The notes: generated by a model from the letters alone, not told the origin. A stretch of 64,000 nt of DNA from Prochlorococcus sp. scB243_495L20 (GCA_000634215.1 JFLX01000113.1:899-64898); one strand, 5' to 3'. Counted from the stretch's first letter, positions 10,984 through 64,000 are shown. Numbers and translations are program-made.

Positions 10984-11229
10984 ATGCAAGAAAACGGCTC
11001 TTCAATAGAAAATCAAAAAGATGATTTTACTAATAAATCATCAACTGACAATGAATACTCAAAATGGGTAGATAATCAGGGGGATGAAGTAAAAAATGTT
11101 TTTGGATTTAATAGCAGCGCCGAGCTTGTGAATGGTAGAGCAGCTATGATTGGATTCTTAATGCTCATATTAACCGAGTTAGTTTTTAGCGGCAGGCCTG
11201 TAACTTCTTCAATTTTTGGTATTAATTAA
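10984..11229 (+). CDS. hli: High-light-inducible protein (Hli/SCP)
   Basis: Chlorophyll-binding motif AELVNGRAAMIGF followed by a TM helix. Confidence 0.93.
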   Translation: MQENGSSIENQKDDFTNKSSTDNEYSKWVDNQGDEVKNVFGFNSSAELVNGRAAMIGFLMLILTELVFSGRPVTSSIFGIN

Positions 11230-55692: not shown

Positions 55693-56235
55693 TCAAAGTT
55701 TTTTTACAGCTTTGAGAATGGAATTATCAGAACAGTATAGTGGATGTATTGGATTATCTTTGATTGTTTTCTTAATTAAAAGCGGTCCAAGAGGATTATC
55801 AAAATTATTTTTTCTGATTGAGTTATATTGCATTATTTTTTTTAATATTCTTTTATTTCTATTTAGAAATTTCCCTTTGTTACCCCAACCTAACCATAAA
55901 TCACAATTTTTATTTTCAGACCAGTGTTTTAAGTTTTTATAAATATGATTATTGTTTAAATACCCAACAGGATTTTTGTGATTAAAGAGTCTCTCTGGAT
56001 TACTTGAAATAAGAGCAAATAAATTGATTAATTTAACTTTGCCATAATTATTATTTTTCGAGATTTTAATTATCTTTTTTGTTGTATTATCCAAGAAAAC
56101 TTCATCAGATAATGAGGGATTTAAACCAATAAAGATAATCTCTTTTTTAGATTTAGAAATCTTATAACTTAAACTCCATCTATATAGTTTGTTTGCACTT
56201 ATTAAACAATTCCTTTCTAGAAATGAATTGTTCAA
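55693..56235 (-). CDS. DUF1643 domain protein
   Basis: YRWSL...FIGLNPS...DNTT...NLFA...WLGWGN...HPLY. Confidence 0.88.
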   Translation of the reverse strand: MNNSFLERNCLISANKLYRWSLSYKISKSKKEIIFIGLNPSLSDEVFLDNTTKKIIKISKNNNYGKVKLINLFALISSNPERLFNHKNPVGYLNNNHIYKNLKHWSENKNCDLWLGWGNKGKFLNRNKRILKKIMQYNSIRKNNFDNPLGPLLIKKTIKDNPIHPLYCSDNSILKAVKKL

Positions 56236-56717
56236 CCTAAACCTACACCTCTAGCCATGAGAGTGGCAAACAAAGGTATTGTTGCAAAGCCCACTAATTC
56301 AGTAGTAATGATTAGTCTGAACCTCTTGACTAGATTTTCAGATATTTCAGGTAATTTATTCTTACTTAATGGAATGGCCCATAAGATATAGGTTGTTGTT
56401 GGATATAAAGAAAGTAATCCCACAAGAATATAAAGAGAAACCTTTATCCAAAACACAGGATTACCTGTATAGAAATCACCTCCTTGACCAAAATACTTAA
56501 CACGCAAAATCCCAGTAACTAATATCGCAACTCCTGCTAAACCATAAACCACATCTGCAATTATCATTGAGATCGTCTGATTTCTATTAAGACCTACTTT
56601 GAGAGTCAATCTTTCAAACAAAAGAGAACCGAAACACAATATTATTCCTAAATAATGAATATATGCTACTAATGCACTTTTCGCAATTTCACCTGTCAAT
56701 AAAGTTCCAAATAACAT
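56232..56717 (-). CDS. DUF2214 family membrane protein
   Basis: AYIHYLG...ADVVYG...YTGNPVFWIK...PLFATLMARGVG. Confidence 0.88.
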   Translation of the reverse strand: MLFGTLLTGEIAKSALVAYIHYLGIILCFGSLLFERLTLKVGLNRNQTISMIIADVVYGLAGVAILVTGILRVKYFGQGGDFYTGNPVFWIKVSLYILVGLLSLYPTTTYILWAIPLSKNKLPEISENLVKRFRLIITTELVGFATIPLFATLMARGVGLG

Positions 56718-56805
56718 TTTCTAGTCAAAATTTATACAATACTAACCACCAATTAAAGAATTTGTTTAGAAAATAAATTAAACAATAAAAAGTCAGCTAT
56801 TGAAT

Positions 56806-57555
56806 CTAGGACTCTAAAAACCTTTTTTGACCATCTTCAAAGAAATCCTTTTTATTCCAAACTTCGATTACATCTGGGAAATGTTTTTCCATACAATTAT
56901 CACAAACCCCATGACTGAATCTTATATCACTAATTTTCGAAAGATATTTTTCTAAATGCATCCAATCGCCCTCCTTATTTTTCACTTCTCTGCAATATGA
57001 ACACACAGATAAAATACCTTCCTGTTTGTGCAAGTTAGACAAAGCATCTAGCAAGTTCAATGACTTTTTTCTAAGCTCTAAAAATGAAACTATTTGCTTG
57101 GATAATAATTCCATAATATTGAATTGTTGTGTAGTTAGATTTCCTGGCTTTCTGTCTATTACACAAAGAGTTCCAAGTTTATTACCATCACTATTTCTGA
57201 GGGGAAAACCTGCATAAAAACGAATCTTGGGGTCTCCTGTTACCAATGGATTATTTAAAAACCTTTCATCTTGAAAAGCATCATGAATAATTAATGGACT
57301 ATTTTCTTTTATTGCATGGGTACAAAAAGACCAATCTCTTCTAGTTTCTGATATTTGAAGTCCTATTTTAGATTTAAACCATTGTTTATCTTTGTCTACC
57401 AATGTCATTAAAGAAATAGGCACATTACAGGTTGTAGCAGCAATTTTTGTAATATCGTCATAACATGATTCCGGCTTGGTTCCCAAAATCCTATATTCTG
57501 CTAAAGCTTTTAATCTTCTTTCCTCTTCTTCTTTTTTTGATACAAGATTCTGCAT
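56806..57555 (-). CDS. GAF-domain protein with C-terminal CxxC...HxxCxxC module
   Basis: GAF (YDDITKIAA...QWFKS...SFCTHA...RFYAGFPL..GTLCVID), followed by CSYC...W...YL...FSHGVCDNC. Confidence 0.88.
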   Translation of the reverse strand: MQNLVSKKEEEERRLKALAEYRILGTKPESCYDDITKIAATTCNVPISLMTLVDKDKQWFKSKIGLQISETRRDWSFCTHAIKENSPLIIHDAFQDERFLNNPLVTGDPKIRFYAGFPLRNSDGNKLGTLCVIDRKPGNLTTQQFNIMELLSKQIVSFLELRKKSLNLLDALSNLHKQEGILSVCSYCREVKNKEGDWMHLEKYLSKISDIRFSHGVCDNCMEKHFPDVIEVWNKKDFFEDGQKRFLES

Positions 57556-57674
57556 TAATCTTCACCAATAATTAAAACTTTAAAATTAAAGTTTCTCCAA
57601 AAAACTTTTTCCTTCTAATACTTAATAAAAAAAAGATAAACTTATTGAATTGTTACTTACTGATTTATTACTTA

Positions 57675-58919
57675 TTAATTTAATATTGATTGATTTAACT
57701 TTGAGACTGCCATCCCAGCGATCCATCCACTTGTCCAACAATGTTGAAAATTAAATCCACCAGTGATCCCATCAACATCCAAAACTTCTCCAGAAAAAAA
57801 TAATCCTGGACAAATTAAGCTCTCCATACTTTTAAAATTAACCTCATTAATTTTTACGCCTCCGGCAGTAACAAATTCCTCTCCAAATGGACCTTTTCCC
57901 GAAATTATATATTTATCCCTCATAAGAGTATTTATCATTTTCTCTCTTTCATCCGCCAGTAAATCAGCCCATTTTTTCTCTTTATCAATACCTATTTTCT
58001 TTAATAAAAAAATCCATAATCTTTTTGTTAATAGTGGCACAGGTCTACTATTAATAAGATTCACCTTGCCTTTATTTAATCTTAAATAATTAATTTTTTC
58101 TTTTAACTCCTCATAACTTAAAGAAGTCCATTTAATGATTAAATTAAATTTATATTTTTGGCTATAAAGTTCCCTCGCTGCAATTGATGAAAGTTTTAAT
58201 ACTGCTGGCCCACTAAACCCCCAATGCGTTATTAGTAAATCGCCTCTATTTTGAAAATTCTTATTATTTAAATTAATTTCTATATCTATGCCCCTTATCG
58301 ATACCCCACTACATTCATCCAAATTTGGTTCTTTTGTGGAAAAAGTAAAAAGCGATGGTAAAGGTTTAACAATGGTGTGTCCAAGATTTTGAGCTAATTT
58401 ATATCCGCTTGGATTACCTCCAGTTGAAAGAATAATATTTTTTGAAGTTACCTTTGCTTTTTTAAGACTAAAAATATTGAATAAATTATCTGGAGTTTTT
58501 GCAATTTCTTTTACAAAAAATTTTGTTAGTATCTCTACGTTTTTTGATAAAGCACTTTTTCTCAAACAATCAATAACATCTGAAGAAGAATTAGACACTG
58601 GGAATACCCTTAGATCTTCCTCAATTTTTAATTTTAAACCTTTTTTCTCAAACCAATCGTATACATCTCCAGCAGCAAAACGATTAAATGATTCCAAGAG
58701 CTGAATTCCACCTCTGGGGTAATTCTCAATTAGCTCATTCGGTATCCATGTCGCATTAGTGACGTTACATCTTCCCCCTCCACTAATCCTTACTTTCTCC
58801 ATAAGTTTTGAAGTTCCTTCAAGTATTATTATTCTTTTTACTCCATTTTCAGCAGCAGTTATTGCTGTCATAAAACCGGCTGCACCGCCTCCAACAACTG
58901 CTAAATCAAAAGGTTCCAA
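57675..58919 (-). CDS. HI0933/YhiN (BaiN-like) flavoprotein oxidoreductase
   Basis: VVGGGAAGFM, KVRISGGGRCNVTN, LLITHWGFSGPAVL, VTAGGV, GEVLDVDGITGGFNFQ. Confidence 0.93.
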   Translation of the reverse strand: MEPFDLAVVGGGAAGFMTAITAAENGVKRIIILEGTSKLMEKVRISGGGRCNVTNATWIPNELIENYPRGGIQLLESFNRFAAGDVYDWFEKKGLKLKIEEDLRVFPVSNSSSDVIDCLRKSALSKNVEILTKFFVKEIAKTPDNLFNIFSLKKAKVTSKNIILSTGGNPSGYKLAQNLGHTIVKPLPSLFTFSTKEPNLDECSGVSIRGIDIEINLNNKNFQNRGDLLITHWGFSGPAVLKLSSIAARELYSQKYKFNLIIKWTSLSYEELKEKINYLRLNKGKVNLINSRPVPLLTKRLWIFLLKKIGIDKEKKWADLLADEREKMINTLMRDKYIISGKGPFGEEFVTAGGVKINEVNFKSMESLICPGLFFSGEVLDVDGITGGFNFQHCWTSGWIAGMAVSKLNQSILN

Positions 58920-59104
58920 AAACTTATTATTTAATGTACTTCAATCTGATAATAGCAAGTAGTTATAAAGAAAAATTAGTCCAAAAACCATAAAAAAATA
59001 AATATAAAACTTTAAAGCTACATAATAAATAGCTACGATTCACTAATTTTAAAATTTCTAGAAAAATCAACACAGTCGTTATTTTTATGCTTTAAGTTAA
59101 TTAA

Positions 59105-59341
59105 ATGAGTATGTTATTTTCTTACGTTAAATATTCTGAGGCCAGTTTCCCTATGACTGGTCAATATACTGCTCTTCTTTTAATAACTTTTGTTATTTGG
59201 GTTCTACTTTGGTTTGGATATAGACAAAATAAGATAAATGATGAGATCAAGAAAAAAGAAAAAGAAGAAAGAATTAATGCGAAAGTTCAAAGAAGAAAGA
59301 AGTTAGAGAGTTTGTACCCTACTAATAAAAAAACTGTTTAA
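59105..59341 (+). CDS. Single-TM small protein with basic coiled tail
   Basis: TM ALLLITFVIWVLLWFG, then a K/E/R-rich tail ending LESLYPTNKKTV. Confidence 0.65.
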   Translation: MSMLFSYVKYSEASFPMTGQYTALLLITFVIWVLLWFGYRQNKINDEIKKKEKEERINAKVQRRKKLESLYPTNKKTV

Positions 59342-59360
59342 AATTGACTACTTTAGAAAC

Positions 59361-59459
59361 ATGAAAAAAAATAATTTCAAATCACTAATTCAGTACTTAC
59401 CGGGGATTTTGATTCTTATTTATGTATTCTTTTTAGCATTTACTCAATTCATAAAATAA
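59361..59459 (+). CDS. 32-aa single-TM microprotein
   Basis: Translated by hand: MKKNNFKSLIQYLPGILILIYVFFLAFTQFIK. Confidence 0.45.
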   Translation: MKKNNFKSLIQYLPGILILIYVFFLAFTQFIK

Positions 59460-59480
59460 AATTTTTAAAAATTATTCGTT

Positions 59481-60353
59481 TTGATTGGAATCCTTTCTGC
59501 TTTTGGAGCTGCTACATCTTGGACATATGCGTGCTTTATTTGGCGCTCGCAAACTCAAAAATATAAATCAATAGATATTAATTTAATAAAAAATATAATA
59601 GCTTTTTTAATTTTTATACCTGCTTTTATCAATCTAAATTCTACAACTGAATTAAAAAACATATTTATCCTACTAATTAGTGGAATAATAGGTATTGGTT
59701 TAGGTGATACTTTCTATTTAAAGTCACTTCAAACAATTGGCACAAGAAAAACTTTATCTATAGAAACTCTTTCTCCGTTAATGGCAGCTTTATCAGGGGA
59801 ATTTTTTATTAATGAAAATTTAACAACTAAATCATGGGTTGGAATAACTATAGTAACGATTTCGCTATTCATAATTCTCAGAAAAGGTAACGATTTTAAA
59901 GAGGAAAACTTCTCTTTCTCAGAAAAAAATAACTTTAAGATTTTTGCTTTTCCTTTTTTATCAGTTTTATGTGCTGTTCTTGGAGGTCTTTTATCAAGGA
60001 TGGTTTTCCTTCAAAGCAATTTATCTCCTTTCCTTACAACTGAAATAAGATTATTAGGTTCAATAATTTTTTTAATTAGTCTAAAAGGATTTAAGATTAA
60101 TTTTTTCTTAAAAAAAATAGACAAAAAACAACAAAAAAGATTTTTTATTTCAATACTTCTTGGAACAAATGTAGGAATATTTCTACAACAAGTTGTGTTT
60201 AAGACCCTTCCCATAGGAGTAGGATGGGCTTTATTAAGCATATCTCCAATAATTTCTTTATTTTTTGCTAAGACTGAGGAAAGAGAAATTACCAAAAAAA
60301 TAATATTTTTTACTTGTTTTTTATTTTTTGGCTTGACATTAATAATTCTTTAA
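59481..60353 (+). CDS. EamA/DMT family transporter
   Basis: Ten hydrophobic segments in two repeats; GIIGIGLGDTFYLKSL..IG. Confidence 0.88.
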   Translation: MIGILSAFGAATSWTYACFIWRSQTQKYKSIDINLIKNIIAFLIFIPAFINLNSTTELKNIFILLISGIIGIGLGDTFYLKSLQTIGTRKTLSIETLSPLMAALSGEFFINENLTTKSWVGITIVTISLFIILRKGNDFKEENFSFSEKNNFKIFAFPFLSVLCAVLGGLLSRMVFLQSNLSPFLTTEIRLLGSIIFLISLKGFKINFFLKKIDKKQQKRFFISILLGTNVGIFLQQVVFKTLPIGVGWALLSISPIISLFFAKTEEREITKKIIFFTCFLFFGLTLIIL

Positions 60354-60430
60354 TCTCTGAGTTAATGTAAAAAATACTCATGTTAATAATAATCAAATTA
60401 AATAGAATTACCCTATAAACACTCAAAACA

Positions 60431-60553
60431 ATGAAAATATTAAAGAAAAAAAGACTCGGCACATTGGAAGTTTATGTTGTTTTTTTAAGCTGCATTTATG
60501 CAGGCTTTATAGGTTATAAATCTCTCTTAAATATTTTATTTACTTGGAATTAA
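60431..60553 (+). CDS. 40-aa single-TM microprotein
   Basis: Translated by hand: MKILKKKRLGTLEVYVVFLSCIYAGFIGYKSLLNILFTWN; its stop overlaps the convergent 60550 ORF. Confidence 0.45.
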   Translation: MKILKKKRLGTLEVYVVFLSCIYAGFIGYKSLLNILFTWN

Positions 60554-60684
60554 TTAATTTTTTCTAATGATTTAATCAACTTACCTCCATCTTGGTCATC
60601 ATCATCGTTTGAAGCGAAAAATAAAAAAAATATTCCTAAAGAAGCTATAGATAGCGAAATTGACAATACAGAAAGCTCATCCAT
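60550..60684 (-). CDS. 44-aa single-TM microprotein with acidic DDDDQDGGKLI tail
   Basis: Translated by hand: MDELSVLSISLSIASLGIFFLFFASNDDDDQDGGKLIKSLEKIN; motif shared with 61819..62001. Confidence 0.72.
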   Translation of the reverse strand: MDELSVLSISLSIASLGIFFLFFASNDDDDQDGGKLIKSLEKIN

Positions 60685-60776
60685 AAATTAGAATTTCTTT
60701 TATGTTAAACGAAAAAAAATAAAAGACAGTAAAGAAATACACATTCTCGAAAATAAATATTTCTTTTATTTGTAAA

Positions 60777-61076
60777 ATGAAAACACATCCGAACTATTTC
60801 GTGAAAGTTCTAATAACTTCCCCCTGTAGTGCAAGCGTAATAATTCAGTATGGAATAAAAAGTTGGCCTATTTGGGAATGTGAGCCAAGCAAATTTCAAT
60901 GGAATTACGATGATAAGGAAATTTGCTTAATTATTGAAGGTCAAGCGAAAATAAGTACCCAAAACGGTGACATTTACGTGATTAAAGCTGGAGATCTAGT
61001 TGAGTTTCCTGCTGGACTTAACTGCGAATGGGAAGTAACCAAAAGTATTAAAAAACATTATCGATTGGGTAGCTAA
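60777..61076 (+). CDS. DUF861/EutQ-like cupin (likely start GTG 60801)
   Basis: WPIWECEPSKFQWNYDDKEICLIIEGQA...GDLVEFPAG...WEV. Confidence 0.88.
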   Translation: MKTHPNYFVKVLITSPCSASVIIQYGIKSWPIWECEPSKFQWNYDDKEICLIIEGQAKISTQNGDIYVIKAGDLVEFPAGLNCEWEVTKSIKKHYRLGS

Positions 61077-61167
61077 ATTTAAGAAAAAAGATTTTTTCTT
61101 CTTTACTGTTAAGTCAATGAAGATAAAATATGGTTAATAAATAATTTTCAAGAAGGAAACTAATATT

Positions 61168-61338
61168 ATGCCTTTTACTGATCAAGAATATTTTGAGGTT
61201 ATTGAAAAAAACGAAATAGTAAAAAAGGCCTTTGAAAAAATTAAGCAAATTTGCATTGATTTACAAAAACAAACAAATTGTCCTGAAGAGGATCTAAAAG
61301 ATTTTCTTGAATTTATATCTAAACAATGGAATAAGTAA
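61168..61338 (+). CDS. 56-aa soluble helical microprotein
   Basis: Translated by hand: MPFTDQEYFEVIEKNEIVKKAFEKIKQICIDLQKQTNCPEEDLKDFLEFISKQWNK; AAGGA lies upstream. Confidence 0.65.
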   Translation: MPFTDQEYFEVIEKNEIVKKAFEKIKQICIDLQKQTNCPEEDLKDFLEFISKQWNK

Positions 61339-61402
61339 TAATTAAAAAGCCTTTTAAATGCAAAATTTAAAATTTTTATTTAGTTTTCTGAGACAATAAG
61401 TT

Positions 61403-61534
61403 CTAATCTAATTCCTTTTTTGGTTTTGTATTGATACTGGAAGTTCCCTTAGCAGCAGAAACGAAGAAAAAGAAGCCTACAATTCCTGATATACCAAATA
61501 TCGCAGCCAAAGGATCAAAAGTGAAAGAAAACAT
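61403..61534 (-). CDS. 43-aa single-TM microprotein
   Basis: Translated by hand: MFSFTFDPLAAIFGISGIVGFFFFVSAAKGTSSINTKPKKELD. Confidence 0.6.
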   Translation of the reverse strand: MFSFTFDPLAAIFGISGIVGFFFFVSAAKGTSSINTKPKKELD

Positions 61535-61818
61535 AGAATTTATAAAATCAAGATAAATAATAGTTTTTGAATCAAAATTGTATAATTATTGTTAAGTATA
61601 AAAAATAACAATCGCGCGATTCATTATGTCATTATTAGTTTCTCAGTAGGTTCAAAAAAATTATTATTCAAATTGATTTTAAGAACAAAAATATCAAAAC
61701 ATACCAAAGATCTATTCGTGCTAAAGAGAAAAGTTTTTAAAAAATATTTATAGAAATATTGAATAAAAAACGACCCAGAGCATCCACATTTGTTGTTTCT
61801 TTAGATTAATATCAATTT

Positions 61819-62001
61819 ATGACAGAATTTTACTCAACTTCTTCCTCAGTAGGTCCTTTTACAGCGATATTATGGTGCCTTTATCCAGTAGCTTTACTTT
61901 TAATTATTGAATTACTTCTGGGGGGTGGGTTTGATGATGACAATAATGACGATCAAGATGGTGGAATGCTAATACCCGCTTACTCTAGATCAGACGTTTG
62001 A
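61819..62001 (+). CDS. 60-aa single-TM microprotein with acidic DDDNNDDQDGGMLIP tail
   Basis: ORF-track protein; TM ILWCLYPVALLLIIELLL; motif shared with 60550..60684. Confidence 0.75.
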   Translation: MTEFYSTSSSVGPFTAILWCLYPVALLLIIELLLGGGFDDDNNDDQDGGMLIPAYSRSDV

Positions 62002-62047
62002 AATTTTGAATTTTTTTAATTAAAGACTCATAAGGAATTTAATTAAA

Positions 62048-62188
62048 TTGGAGAACAACATTGATACAACTCATATTTCTCTGATTACACTTACCATCCT
62101 AATGATTTCCTCTCTAACCTGGCTCGTCTTTAGAACCCTTAAGGAAGGTAGAAAAGCTCTAACAGAAATAAATAAGGATAAATCGTGA
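62048..62188 (+). CDS. 46-aa single-TM microprotein (TTG start)
   Basis: Translated by hand: MENNIDTTHISLITLTILMISSLTWLVFRTLKEGRKALTEINKDKS; AAGGA lies upstream. Confidence 0.5.
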   Translation: MENNIDTTHISLITLTILMISSLTWLVFRTLKEGRKALTEINKDKS

Positions 62189-62435
62189 AATACAATAACA
62201 ATTCAAAAATGTAGAATTTGATTAGATTTATAAAACTCCTAGATTTATAAGTTTTACTAACTAAATAGATATATTCCAAAAAATTTAAAAACTTTTCCTT
62301 TTCAAAGTTTGGGAAAAGCATAAAAAACTTAAATAAATACTAGAATTTGTTTGATCGCTAAGTCAAAAAATTACCAATCTGTTGAAATCCCATTTTTATG
62401 AAAGGACTTCTTTGTTATTACTTTAATAAATAAAA

Positions 62436-62531
62436 ATGCATCTAAATTCTTTACTTTATATTTGTTCTATATCTTTATTCATTTATATAATGGCGCTGTT
62501 TTGGCGAGACTTGCCAAATCAAAAAAAATAA
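62436..62531 (+). CDS. 31-aa single-TM microprotein
   Basis: Translated by hand: MHLNSLLYICSISLFIYIMALFWRDLPNQKK. Confidence 0.45.
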   Translation: MHLNSLLYICSISLFIYIMALFWRDLPNQKK

Positions 62532-62609
62532 ATAATTAATATTAATTTTGTTGCTTATAAAAATTAATTGAGTTATTAATTTAATATTGGATTTAATTTT
62601 TTTATATAA

Positions 62610-62774
62610 ATGCTGAAAGAATCTTCAAATAACAATAACAAAAACATATTCTCAAAAACTAACGGTATTGCAAAAGAAAAAATGATTTGCAAAGACGGAT
62701 TCTGTTCATTACCAAATCAAGATGAGATTTCAAAACAAGATTCAAATGATATGAATTTATTTGATCCTATTTAG
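62610..62774 (+). CDS. 54-aa polar microprotein with a CKDGFC motif
   Basis: Translated by hand: MLKESSNNNNKNIFSKTNGIAKEKMICKDGFCSLPNQDEISKQDSNDMNLFDPI. Confidence 0.55.
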   Translation: MLKESSNNNNKNIFSKTNGIAKEKMICKDGFCSLPNQDEISKQDSNDMNLFDPI

Positions 62775-62842
62775 TGAATAAATAATATTTTGATAAATTA
62801 AAGATTAAATTGATAATGTTAGATTCTTTAGATTTTTAATTT

Positions 62843-63178
62843 ATGTTTAATGACTTTTTAAACGCATATAAAGAGTTTTGGATTAAAGCTACAGACTTCA
62901 AAGGATTCACATCTCGATTGGACTGGTGGTTAGTTCAACTAGCGAATCTTATAATTTCTTTCCTAACTATCCCAATATTTTTAAAAGCGTTTGGTTTCAA
63001 TGTTTATGGCTTAGTTTGTATCATTCCTCAAATAGCTATTGATGTCAGAAGAATCAAAGATTTTGGAAAAGATTGGAAATGGATCTTTATTAATTTAATA
63101 CCTATCTTAGGATGGCTCTTGTGGTTCATCTGGCTAGGCTTTGGTAAGACTGGTAATGGGAAAAATAAACTTATATAG
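62843..63178 (+). CDS. DUF805 family membrane protein
   Basis: DFKGFTSR..WW...PQIAIDVRRIKDFGKDWKWI..NLIPILGW. Confidence 0.88.
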   Translation: MFNDFLNAYKEFWIKATDFKGFTSRLDWWLVQLANLIISFLTIPIFLKAFGFNVYGLVCIIPQIAIDVRRIKDFGKDWKWIFINLIPILGWLLWFIWLGFGKTGNGKNKLI

Positions 63179-63189
63179 AAATTAACTCC

Positions 63190-63507
63190 TCAATTTTTTC
63201 TTTTTTTAAAATTTACAAATCTTACCTTTTTTCTTAACTCTATTTGTTTTTCAATAATTCTAAACACATGCATCTCGCATTCGGTTAATTTAAGAAACTG
63301 ATGGAGTATATCTTTATCTTCTTCATCAAAATTCTCGAAAACTTCTGAAATAGCAGTACTATTTATAGAAATAAAATTCTCTGCTACATCACGTGGATTC
63401 TTGCCTGATTCGAAATCCTGAAAAGCTTCATAAGAATTAAGTTCTCTCGTTAACCATTTAAACCATGGTTCATTTGTATTATTTTTTTTATTTATGATTT
63501 TCTTCAT
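63190..63507 (-). CDS. 105-aa hypothetical protein, paralog of 52460..52726
   Basis: ATG ORF; aligns without gaps to the 52460..52726 product. Confidence 0.75.
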   Translation of the reverse strand: MKKIINKKNNTNEPWFKWLTRELNSYEAFQDFESGKNPRDVAENFISINSTAISEVFENFDEEDKDILHQFLKLTECEMHVFRIIEKQIELRKKVRFVNFKKRKN

Positions 63508-63714
63508 GAAAAAATTTTTACTAGTTTAATCATTATTAGTTATTTATTCTTTGACACCTGTACAAATACTTATTTTAAAAAACCAATTAAAGATTAAACT
63601 TATTTTTTTTAAAAAAAACTAACATAATTACAATAAAGTTTTTTTTAAGAATAAGTATTTATTACTCATTTTTTTGTTTATAAGATAGCTAGAATTTATT
63701 TTTAGTAAAATACA

Positions 63715-63933
63715 TTGTCAATTCCATTTTACGACTTTCCTTCATCTCCAATTTTAATAATTGGTGCTCTTGGCATTGCAGTAGCGATAGCAGTTTTTTT
63801 TGTCTCTTACCAAAAATATTTCAATTCTCCTTTGAACAAAGAGCTTTCAGAAAAGAAAAAAGCCTTAATTAAGGAACAAAAAGAATTAAATGAAAGATTA
63901 GAAAAAATAGAACAAGATTTAAAAAATTTATAA
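63715..63933 (+). CDS. 72-aa single-TM protein with C-terminal coiled coil
   Basis: TM ILIIGALGIAVAIAVFFV, then heptad-like LIKEQKELNERLEKIEQDL; TTG start. Confidence 0.65.
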   Translation: MSIPFYDFPSSPILIIGALGIAVAIAVFFVSYQKYFNSPLNKELSEKKKALIKEQKELNERLEKIEQDLKNL

Positions 63934-64000
63934 AAAATTACTTTTAAATAGAGATGAGTTAATGATCTCGAATTCAAGACCTTAATTTTTTTAACAGGAA

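Follow-up and report, generated by a model that had tools for sequence, protein, structure and literature searches.

Prochlorococcus is the most abundant phototroph of the ocean and has a streamlined genome, which has nonetheless kept the microprotein-dense block described below. Its high-light types carry multiple copies of the Hlips, small single-pass proteins of the CAB/LHC superfamily (PF00504) that are shared with cyanophages. Similar in build are the Escherichia coli proteins KdpF, AcrZ and MgtS, in which a single transmembrane (TM) helix is joined to a charged tail and whose genes lie beside those of other membrane proteins. Small thylakoid subunits and regulators have been reviewed (PMC5126843, PMC12648545), and the cyanophage gene clusters T4-GC 272 and T4-GC 273/437, which enter the discussion below, have been listed only as hypothetical proteins (PMC3037559, PMC1079782). 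The locus considered here, positions 59105-63933, forms the last 5 kb of a stretch of 64,000 nucleotides (nt) from Prochlorococcus sp. scB243_495L20 (GCA_000634215.1, JFLX01000113.1:899-64898), hereafter the window. It holds nine open reading frames (ORFs) of 31-78 amino acids (aa), labelled c1 to c9, each predicted to specify a single hydrophobic helix.

As judged by comparison across genomes, all nine ORFs are real protein-coding genes, and purifying selection acts on them. The families of two of them, c6 and c9, adjoin hli genes in cyanophages, which hints at a role in the photosynthetic membrane. The reading favoured here, to which we assign a probability of roughly 0.55, is that the ORFs form a vertically inherited block in which c6, c9 and possibly c4 would act in a photoprotection module together with Hlips and photosystem II (PSII). 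A first-pass annotation of the window had described these ORFs as a repertoire of membrane microproteins set among a cupin, an EamA transporter, a DUF805 protein and three small soluble proteins. All nine lie where it placed them and on the strands it gave, Pfam bears out the three named domains, and the soluble ORFs (56, 54 and 105 aa) are likewise present. The idea of a repertoire holds up too, given the purifying selection and the widespread full-length copies described next.

Close relatives were compared by means of 80 syntenic loci, nearly all titled Prochlorococcus, that were fetched with the EamA gene. A further search with EamA as anchor, meant to reach distant clades, gave a list filled with matches of at least 85% identity. 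The closest relative is scB243_495D8 (98%), and the cultured strains SS51, MIT 9314 and SB are within the set. By BLASTN, positions 58901-64000 are collinear in 80/80 loci at 85-97% identity, with only short insertions and deletions (indels), so the region is a stable part of the chromosome of high-light-type Prochlorococcus and not a hypervariable island. Each tblastn match was extended to its own ORF, genome by genome, and counted as full-length when within 3 aa. On this count c1 and c2 are full-length in 80/80 loci, c3, c4, c6 and c8 in 79/79 each, and c5 and c7 in 78/79 each; c3 is 38 aa long in 23 genomes. The gene c9 occurs in 72 loci and is full-length in 57 of them; because its TTG start is conserved across the alignment, the shortfall lies mostly in start-finding during the analysis. 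Apparent frameshifts in c7, c8 and c9 proved to be alignment artefacts at stop codons, which the per-genome extension resolved.

Codon-level conservation, a check that the first-pass annotation had proposed, was measured as the ratio of nonsynonymous to synonymous substitution (dN/dS; Nei-Gojobori, against the window sequence) in an alignment of the region from 81 genomes. Constraint was found for all nine ORFs, with values from 0.04 to 0.30: c1 0.25, c2 0.07, c3 0.30, c4 0.13, c5 0.07, c6 0.20, c7 0.23, c8 0.04 and c9 0.25, compared with 0.34 for EamA. The fastest-evolving of the nine is c7 (dS 0.40). Variable sites fall mostly at third codon positions, nucleotide diversity (pi) is below that of the flanking spacers in most ORFs, and indels are almost confined to the spacers and the 3' ends of the ORFs. 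ORFs other than the nine that fall in the spacers are mostly disrupted, with dN/dS near 0.4-1.4; those antisense to real genes reflect constraint on the partner gene.

It had also been cautioned that hydrophobic ORFs arise easily in T-rich DNA and that the shortest ones need confirmation. Some such ORFs are indeed expected by chance: 200 mononucleotide shuffles, which form a generous null, gave 1.6 +/- 1.2 TM-like ORFs of 30-80 aa (maximum 6). The region contains 10, roughly 6-fold more, and c8, at 31 aa, has the lowest dN/dS of the set. The density of TM-like small ORFs is 8 per 4 kb here and no higher than 4 in the rest of the window, and the maximum 19-residue Kyte-Doolittle hydropathy is 1.98-2.84 for eight of the nine and 1.82 for c3. 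As the first-pass annotation had noted, the genes tile the gaps with little overlap; 72% of the region is coding, and the sole overlap is one of 4 nt between the convergent 3' ends of c3 and c4.

The genes c6 and c7 and their spacers (61819-62435) form a diversity hotspot among genomes that are 95% identical elsewhere, with pi of 0.11-0.27 and dS of 0.28-0.40, as against pi of 0.03-0.07 and dS of 0.05-0.15 for most neighbours. Recombination with divergent, perhaps phage-borne, alleles at a phage-shared gene may account for it. Nearby, about 121 bp in the gap between c7 and c8 (62194-62314) are absent from some 13 of the 80 genomes, the closest one (L001) included; this stretch holds only a non-conserved antisense ORF.

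The age of the block emerges from a deeper sample. A metagenome scan seeded with the c1-family alignment yielded 80 further contigs, which were grouped by EamA identity (at least 80%, 66-79%, and at most 65%). Nearly all of them are Prochlorococcus-type contigs with a guanine-plus-cytosine (GC) content of 26-28% and the same gene order. In the lowest tier (n=51) the order reads HI0933-c1-c2-EamA-c3-c4-(cupin)-sol56-c5-c6-(c7)-c8, where sol56 is the 56-aa soluble protein. EamA identity in the divergent syntenic contigs is 54-63% (median 58), and the HI0933 flavoprotein has a median of 63 in the same 51 contigs. The corresponding medians are c1 70, c2 52, c3 52, c4 70, c5 75, c6 63 and c8 78 (range for c8, 68-90%), so c1, c4, c5 and c8 outconserve the very transporter that they surround. 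That several proteins of 31-78 aa are better conserved than neighbouring enzymes and transporters implies that they have real functions. Contigs that span the positions almost always hold the genes (c1 45/45, c2 47/51, c3 40/41, c4 35/35), and a c2 family profile matches 67 metagenome loci. The picture is less even toward the 3' side: c7 is very divergent in the deep contigs, with diverged homologues in two (L151, L152), and c9 was detected in the close and intermediate tiers only. The cupin gene was detected in only about 11 of 34 divergent contigs; c4 and sol56, the very small genes on either side of it, are retained.

The first-pass annotation had supposed that these genes were acquired gene by gene. 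Their order is identical in all 80 close loci and retained where EamA identity has fallen to 54-63%, and the GC content of the block is no different from its surroundings, which together mark it as an old, vertically inherited unit; the order kept in deeply divergent contigs rules out recent piecemeal acquisition.

What sets c6 and c9 apart is their occurrence in cyanophages, where a search suggested by the first-pass annotation was positive for these two. The c6 protein belongs with phrog_7843 (T4-GC 273/437; E=8.9e-18, residues 4-57 against profile positions 3-56 of 59), to which the P-SSM7 protein PSSM7_220 scores 1e-28 by comparison, and c9 belongs with phrog_14199 (T4-GC 272; E=8.3e-18, residues 1-42 against positions 2-43 of 43). 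PHROGs gives the function of both as unknown. When 50,697 phage records were searched by tblastn, the weak matches to c9 turned out to be annotated cyanomyophage genes of 42-49 aa (T4-GC 272); in all, phage homologues of the c9 family occur in 30 records and those of the c6 family in 32. Family profiles for c6 and c9 match phage proteins at E values of 1e-21 to 1e-28. A profile built from divergent c6 relatives retrieved 6506 protein clusters, and the long contigs opened from it were all phage, three of them T4-like (gp23, UvsW/UvsY, gp44/45 or psbA) and a fourth type carrying a primase-polymerase gene.

Gene maps were read for eight cultured cyanomyophages, and in every one of them the c6-like gene follows the hli array as its first or second neighbour, often with psbA close by. 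P-SSM2 and P-SSM7 share the order hli03 x3, hli04, hli05, c9-like gene, 39-aa TM gene, c6-like gene, with petF or psbA nearby. In P-HM2, MED4-213, P-TIM68, P-RSM6, S-SSM7 and MbCM1 no annotated gene separates the c6-like gene from the end of the array, and it lies on the same strand as hli at gaps of 0-390 nt. In P-SSM3, P-SSM4, P-RSM3, P-HM1 and P-RSM1 the c6-like match abuts an annotated hli gene, as read from the match table, not from gene maps. Metagenomic phage contigs carry the arrangement to its limit, the c6-like ATG coming directly after the hli stop codon. Moreover, the c6-like gene of P-HM2 (PHM2_202) is placed in class Mid(B) in light, like the hli genes PHM2_198-201 (PMC5082946, supplementary file 3). 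The first-pass annotation had offered photosystem regulation as one possible role; for c6 and c9 it draws circumstantial support from their phage homologues, which lie in or beside the hli array and often near psbA, and c6 gains the further point that its P-HM2 homologue shares a transcription class with hli.

The zero spacing between the two phage genes has left a trace in the databases. Public gene calls read the stop codon between hli and the c6-like gene as Q (L174 757-1047, L175, L176), which yields spurious 96-aa "Hlip fusion" proteins in several clusters. As Rosetta-stone evidence such Hlip::c6 fusions were mostly rejected, the Q-linker versions having an in-frame stop in the DNA; one 623-bp contig alone (L177) has a sense codon, TAT, at the junction. 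The robust fact is the zero-spacing adjacency of hli and the c6-like gene, not fusion. Phage hli clusters also hold the tiny TM families T4-GC 719 (39 aa) and T4-GC 594 (37-38 aa), seen beside c9- and c6-like genes (L084 2715-2834 and 3248-3361, L178 1736-1852), and neither family has a host counterpart among the nine ORFs. The c6-type acidic tail recurs in phrog_905 and phrog_17393.

Of the remaining ORFs, c4 shares the acidic tail motif of c6, DDDDQDGG-x-LI. The two families align with 95.9% probability by hhalign, over the 19 columns of the motif only, and c4 itself matches phrog_7843 weakly (E=0.0056), a phage match at the level of the motif only. For c1, c2, c3, c5, c7 and c8 no phage relatives were found with either the window sequences or the most divergent representatives as queries, and for c1 none in IMG/VR. 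A c1-like ORF in the phage contig L088 (E=0.006) was rejected, as it is conserved in no phage record.

The microproteins had been said to be mostly missed by gene calling. This is true of the ORF track available to the first-pass annotation; public protein collections already contain exact copies of c1, c2, c4, c5, c6 and c9, the clusters having up to 1371 members. There c4 and c5 are NCBI "hypothetical protein" entries (c5 is WP_275040512.1, present on 214 contigs), c9 is mislabelled "M protein", and c1 and c2 are nameless. With a concatenated query, homologues of all nine were found among 1.84 billion representatives clustered at 50% identity, c3-, c7- and c8-like proteins included. Within this library c2, c3, c5, c7 and c8 are narrow families without distant members, the c1 family extends to about 40% identity in other lineages, and c6 and c9 have many divergent members. 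A word-indexed search with the concatenated nine ORFs returned only P0001, a chimeric contig protein in a non-cyanobacterial context, which was set aside. On contig L081 (ENA k141_251285), a 172-aa "protein" joins residues 1-47 of a c1 homologue to the C-terminus of a citrate synthase; the rest of the contig carries non-cyanobacterial genes, and this protein is most likely an assembly chimera.

No significant match to Pfam or NCBIfam was obtained for any of the nine; the best sub-threshold matches are those of c9 (NCBIfam E=0.0012, Pfam E=0.0065), far below the curated cut-offs. Pfam models of the small photosystem and cytochrome b6f subunits (PsbT, PsbN, PsbM, PetN, PetL, PsaM and others) gave no match at E<=1 for c2, c3, c4, c5, c7 and c8 or at E<=0.01 for c1, c6 and c9. 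The families are thus uncharacterised small single-pass membrane proteins already deposited as hypothetical proteins, and what is new here is their codon-level validation, the depth of their conservation and the tie between host c6 and c9 and the phage hli module.

In the host, contigs from four marine metatranscriptome runs cover the whole region. Depth varies strongly along the region in run X14 (oligo-dT), peaking at c6, at c9 and at a stretch inside EamA, and c6 is the bin of highest contig depth in runs X14 and X6. Since the contigs are unstranded and contig depth is a poor measure, these data show transcription only. The EamA peak, a bin of about 4200 at 60097-60267 in the 3' part of the gene, probably stems from priming within A-rich sequence; a small RNA or an abundant fragment of the 3' part is a conceivable alternative. 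The next gene upstream of c6 is c5, on the opposite strand and separated from it by 284 nt. Promoter and terminator scans of the region returned nothing informative.

A thylakoid role for c6 and c9 alongside Hlips and PSII is the best-supported reading of these observations, and the argument is one of guilt by association in phages, not of evidence from the host. The proteins, perhaps with c4, would insert into the thylakoid membrane and work with Hlips and PSII in photoprotection or repair, and their acidic or coiled-coil tails could bind cations or act in docking. Those microproteins that only the host carries may belong to membrane complexes as small accessory or regulatory subunits, c1, c2 and c3 plausibly serving the EamA protein whose gene they flank. 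Several points weigh against this account. Neither c6 nor c9 of the host is beside hli, the nearest hli gene lying about 6 kb downstream in related genomes, and a scan for HLR1 (RpaB), a high-light promoter motif, was without signal (90 matches against 115 expected). The link between c4 and c6 consists of a partly low-complexity motif of 19 columns, and most Hlip::c6 fusions in the databases are gene-calling artefacts. An AlphaFold2 model of the fusion is of low confidence (predicted local distance difference test, pLDDT, 65.6; predicted template modelling score, pTM, 0.29) and uninformative on helix packing, for which it was not used. For seven of the nine, the functional lead is position only. 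A more specific version can be offered tentatively, as one possibility that we judge distinctly less probable than the general reading: c6 and c9, perhaps with c4 as a paralogue, would be unrecognised Hlip partners in a photoprotection and PSII-repair module shared by high-light Prochlorococcus and cyanomyophages, the poly-Asp tail of c6 being a docking or cation-binding element, and the rest would be further lineage-specific thylakoid microproteins that contributed to high-light adaptation.

The most serious competitor, doubtful in our estimation yet deserving of attention, is that the microproteins serve the neighbouring transporters as accessory or regulatory subunits, in the manner of KdpF, AcrZ and MgtS in enterobacteria. 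On this view c1-c2-EamA-c3 would be one operon, and c8, sol54 (the 54-aa soluble protein) and DUF805 another unit. For c1-c2-EamA-c3, the transporter regulation offered as a possibility in the first-pass annotation would fit the close and conserved co-orientation of the genes. EamA is flanked on both sides by same-strand microprotein genes; c2 begins 19 nt past c1 and ends 21 nt ahead of EamA, with c3 following after 77 nt, and this arrangement is kept in every divergence tier at the presence counts given above for c1, c2 and c3. Metatranscriptome contigs bridge the 3' end of c1, c2 and the 5' end of EamA. That said, subunits dedicated to EamA sit poorly with c1, c4, c5 and c8 being better conserved than EamA itself, no transporter lies near the c6 and c9 homologues of phages, and in a remote relative of c1 (L094) the gene upstream is another one, on a 1-kb contig that ends at c1.

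Far less probable is an island built up by horizontal transfer, one gene at a time, from factors that derive from phages or act against them, a view akin to the first-pass suggestion of phage-entry or exclusion factors. It could draw on the cyanophage homologues of c6 and c9, on small indel polymorphisms and on the c6-c7 segment being the most diverse of the region, but the constant gene order in the 80 close genomes and the deeply divergent contigs, the ordinary composition of the block and the absence of island features speak against it. Rfam searches of 56000-64000 revealed no tRNA or other family, PADLOC-DB defence models matched none of the nine, and seven of the nine families are without phage or IMG/VR relatives. 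The genes that phages do share look auxiliary and host-like, their copies sitting in a photosynthesis module and not in superinfection-exclusion contexts. Least credible of all is a reading of some ORFs as membrane peptides akin to type I toxins, or as untranslated, being chance ORFs in AT-rich DNA or parts of noncoding RNAs. T-rich DNA readily yields small hydrophobic ORFs, and the convergent c3 and c4 overlap at their 3' ends; against a noncoding origin stand the codon-level purifying selection, frame-preserving variation, conserved starts and deep conservation, and no Rfam family matches. The core, syntenic, single-copy distribution is unlike that of type I toxin loci, which pair a small hydrophobic toxin with a cis- or trans-acting antisense RNA and are patchy and often multi-copy. 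The favoured account remains the vertically inherited block with a candidate photoprotection role for c6, c9 and possibly c4. Its genes are collected in the table.

Genes of positions 59105-63933 of the window, in map order
Gene	Coordinates	Strand	Length (aa)	Characteristics
c1	59105..59341	+	78	Short N-terminal segment, TM helix ~21-39, K/E-rich tail ending LYP
c2	59361..59459	+	32	Basic N-terminus MKKNNFK, then TM helix
EamA/DMT-family permease	59481..60353	+	290	PF00892 E=1e-22, 81.3 bits vs cut-off 28.2
c3	60431..60553	+	40	Basic N-terminus, then TM helix
c4	60550..60684	-	44	TM helix, then acidic tail SNDDDDQDGGKLIK
Cupin_3 protein	60777..61076	+	99 as read	PF05899 E=1.9e-23, 82.4 bits vs cut-off 23.5
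Soluble protein (sol56)	61168..61338	+	56	79/79 full-length, dN/dS 0.12
c5	61403..61534	-	43	N-terminal TM helix, then basic tail KPKKELD
c6	61819..62001	+	60	TM helix with AILWC(L/F)YP...E, then acidic tail DDDNNDDQDGGMLIP
c7	62048..62188	+	46	TTG start; TM helix, then basic tail RTLKEGRKAL...
c8	62436..62531	+	31	TM helix, then nearly invariant LFWRD(L/I)PNQKK
Soluble protein (sol54)	62610..62774	+	54	Contains CKDGFC; 78/79 full-length, dN/dS 0.31
DUF805 membrane protein	62843..63178	+	111	PF05656 E=1.6e-14, 54.7 bits vs cut-off 25.7
Soluble protein	63190..63507	-	105	72/77 full-length, dN/dS 0.46
c9	63715..63933	+	72	TTG start; IPFYDFPSSP, TM helix, YFNSPLN, K/E-rich helix

Some further details attach to these genes. 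The c1 family alignment has W..GY..N...D and LYP invariant, and an AlphaFold2 model of c9 (pLDDT 78.8) has helices at residues 12-36 (TM) and 39-71. At 60777 the cupin ATG falls within a run of A residues whose length varies, and only 8/79 genomes keep it in frame; the GTG at 60801 is the probable conserved start. A distant paralogue (24-35%) of the 105-aa soluble protein recurs about 5.5 kb upstream of the HI0933-like gene in metagenome contigs (L095, L106, L117, L137, L140, L149 and others). The small-gene-rich region runs past the 3' end of the window, as seen in contig L019 (14549-20870), where a 51-aa ORF, two fatty-acid-desaturase-like genes (368 and 392 aa), a 205-aa ORF and two tandem hli genes are found along with further small ORFs, including TM ORFs of 43, 54 and 42 aa. 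Desaturases and hli are known cyanophage auxiliary genes (PMC5776448).

The link to phage hli and psbA gives two "hypothetical proteins", c6 and c9, a concrete and testable hypothesis. If it is true, they may be missing parts of the Hlip photoprotection system, copied by phages to sustain host photosynthesis during infection. The case also illustrates that comparative genomics alone can validate ORFs of 31 codons in AT-rich DNA.

How, then, do the nine compare with the systems named at the outset? They resemble KdpF, AcrZ and MgtS in size, in layout and in having membrane-protein genes as neighbours, and have no sequence relationship to any of the characterised small accessory membrane proteins. 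Their likeness to the Hlips lies in small size and a single pass and, for c6 and c9, in being shared with cyanophages and in the proximity of hli to the phage c6- and c9-type genes. Unlike Hlips, they are without the chlorophyll-binding motif E-x-x-NGR-x-AM-x-GF and without a significant Pfam match; they are not Hlips. A search for the motif core NGR-x-AM found it in none of the nine and only in an unrelated ORF at 10984-11229, which is, at 81 aa and with the core VNGRAAMIGF, the sole hli-like gene inside the window.

Like the members of phrog_14199 (for example PSSM2_277, PRSM4_069 and SSSM7_054), c9 has the segment (I/V)P(F/T)YDFP-x-SPIL, a TM helix and YFNSP-x-N; unlike these phage proteins of 42-49 aa, it goes on into an extra K/E-rich C-terminal helix of 30 residues. 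The phage gene comes directly after hli05 in P-SSM2 and P-SSM7 and is located elsewhere in P-RSM4 and S-SSM7. Host c6 differs from the phage genes of phrog_7843 in not being beside hli, position being no formal criterion of the family, and in its tail, which reads GGGFDDDN(N)DDQDGGMLIPAY where the phage proteins have LRA-x-NDDDDDD. It nonetheless shares with the phage members, such as PSSM2_278, PSSM7_220 and PHM2_202, at 42-50% identity, the AILWCFYP...E helix, a poly-Asp stretch and a tail of the form GG-x-M-x-P.

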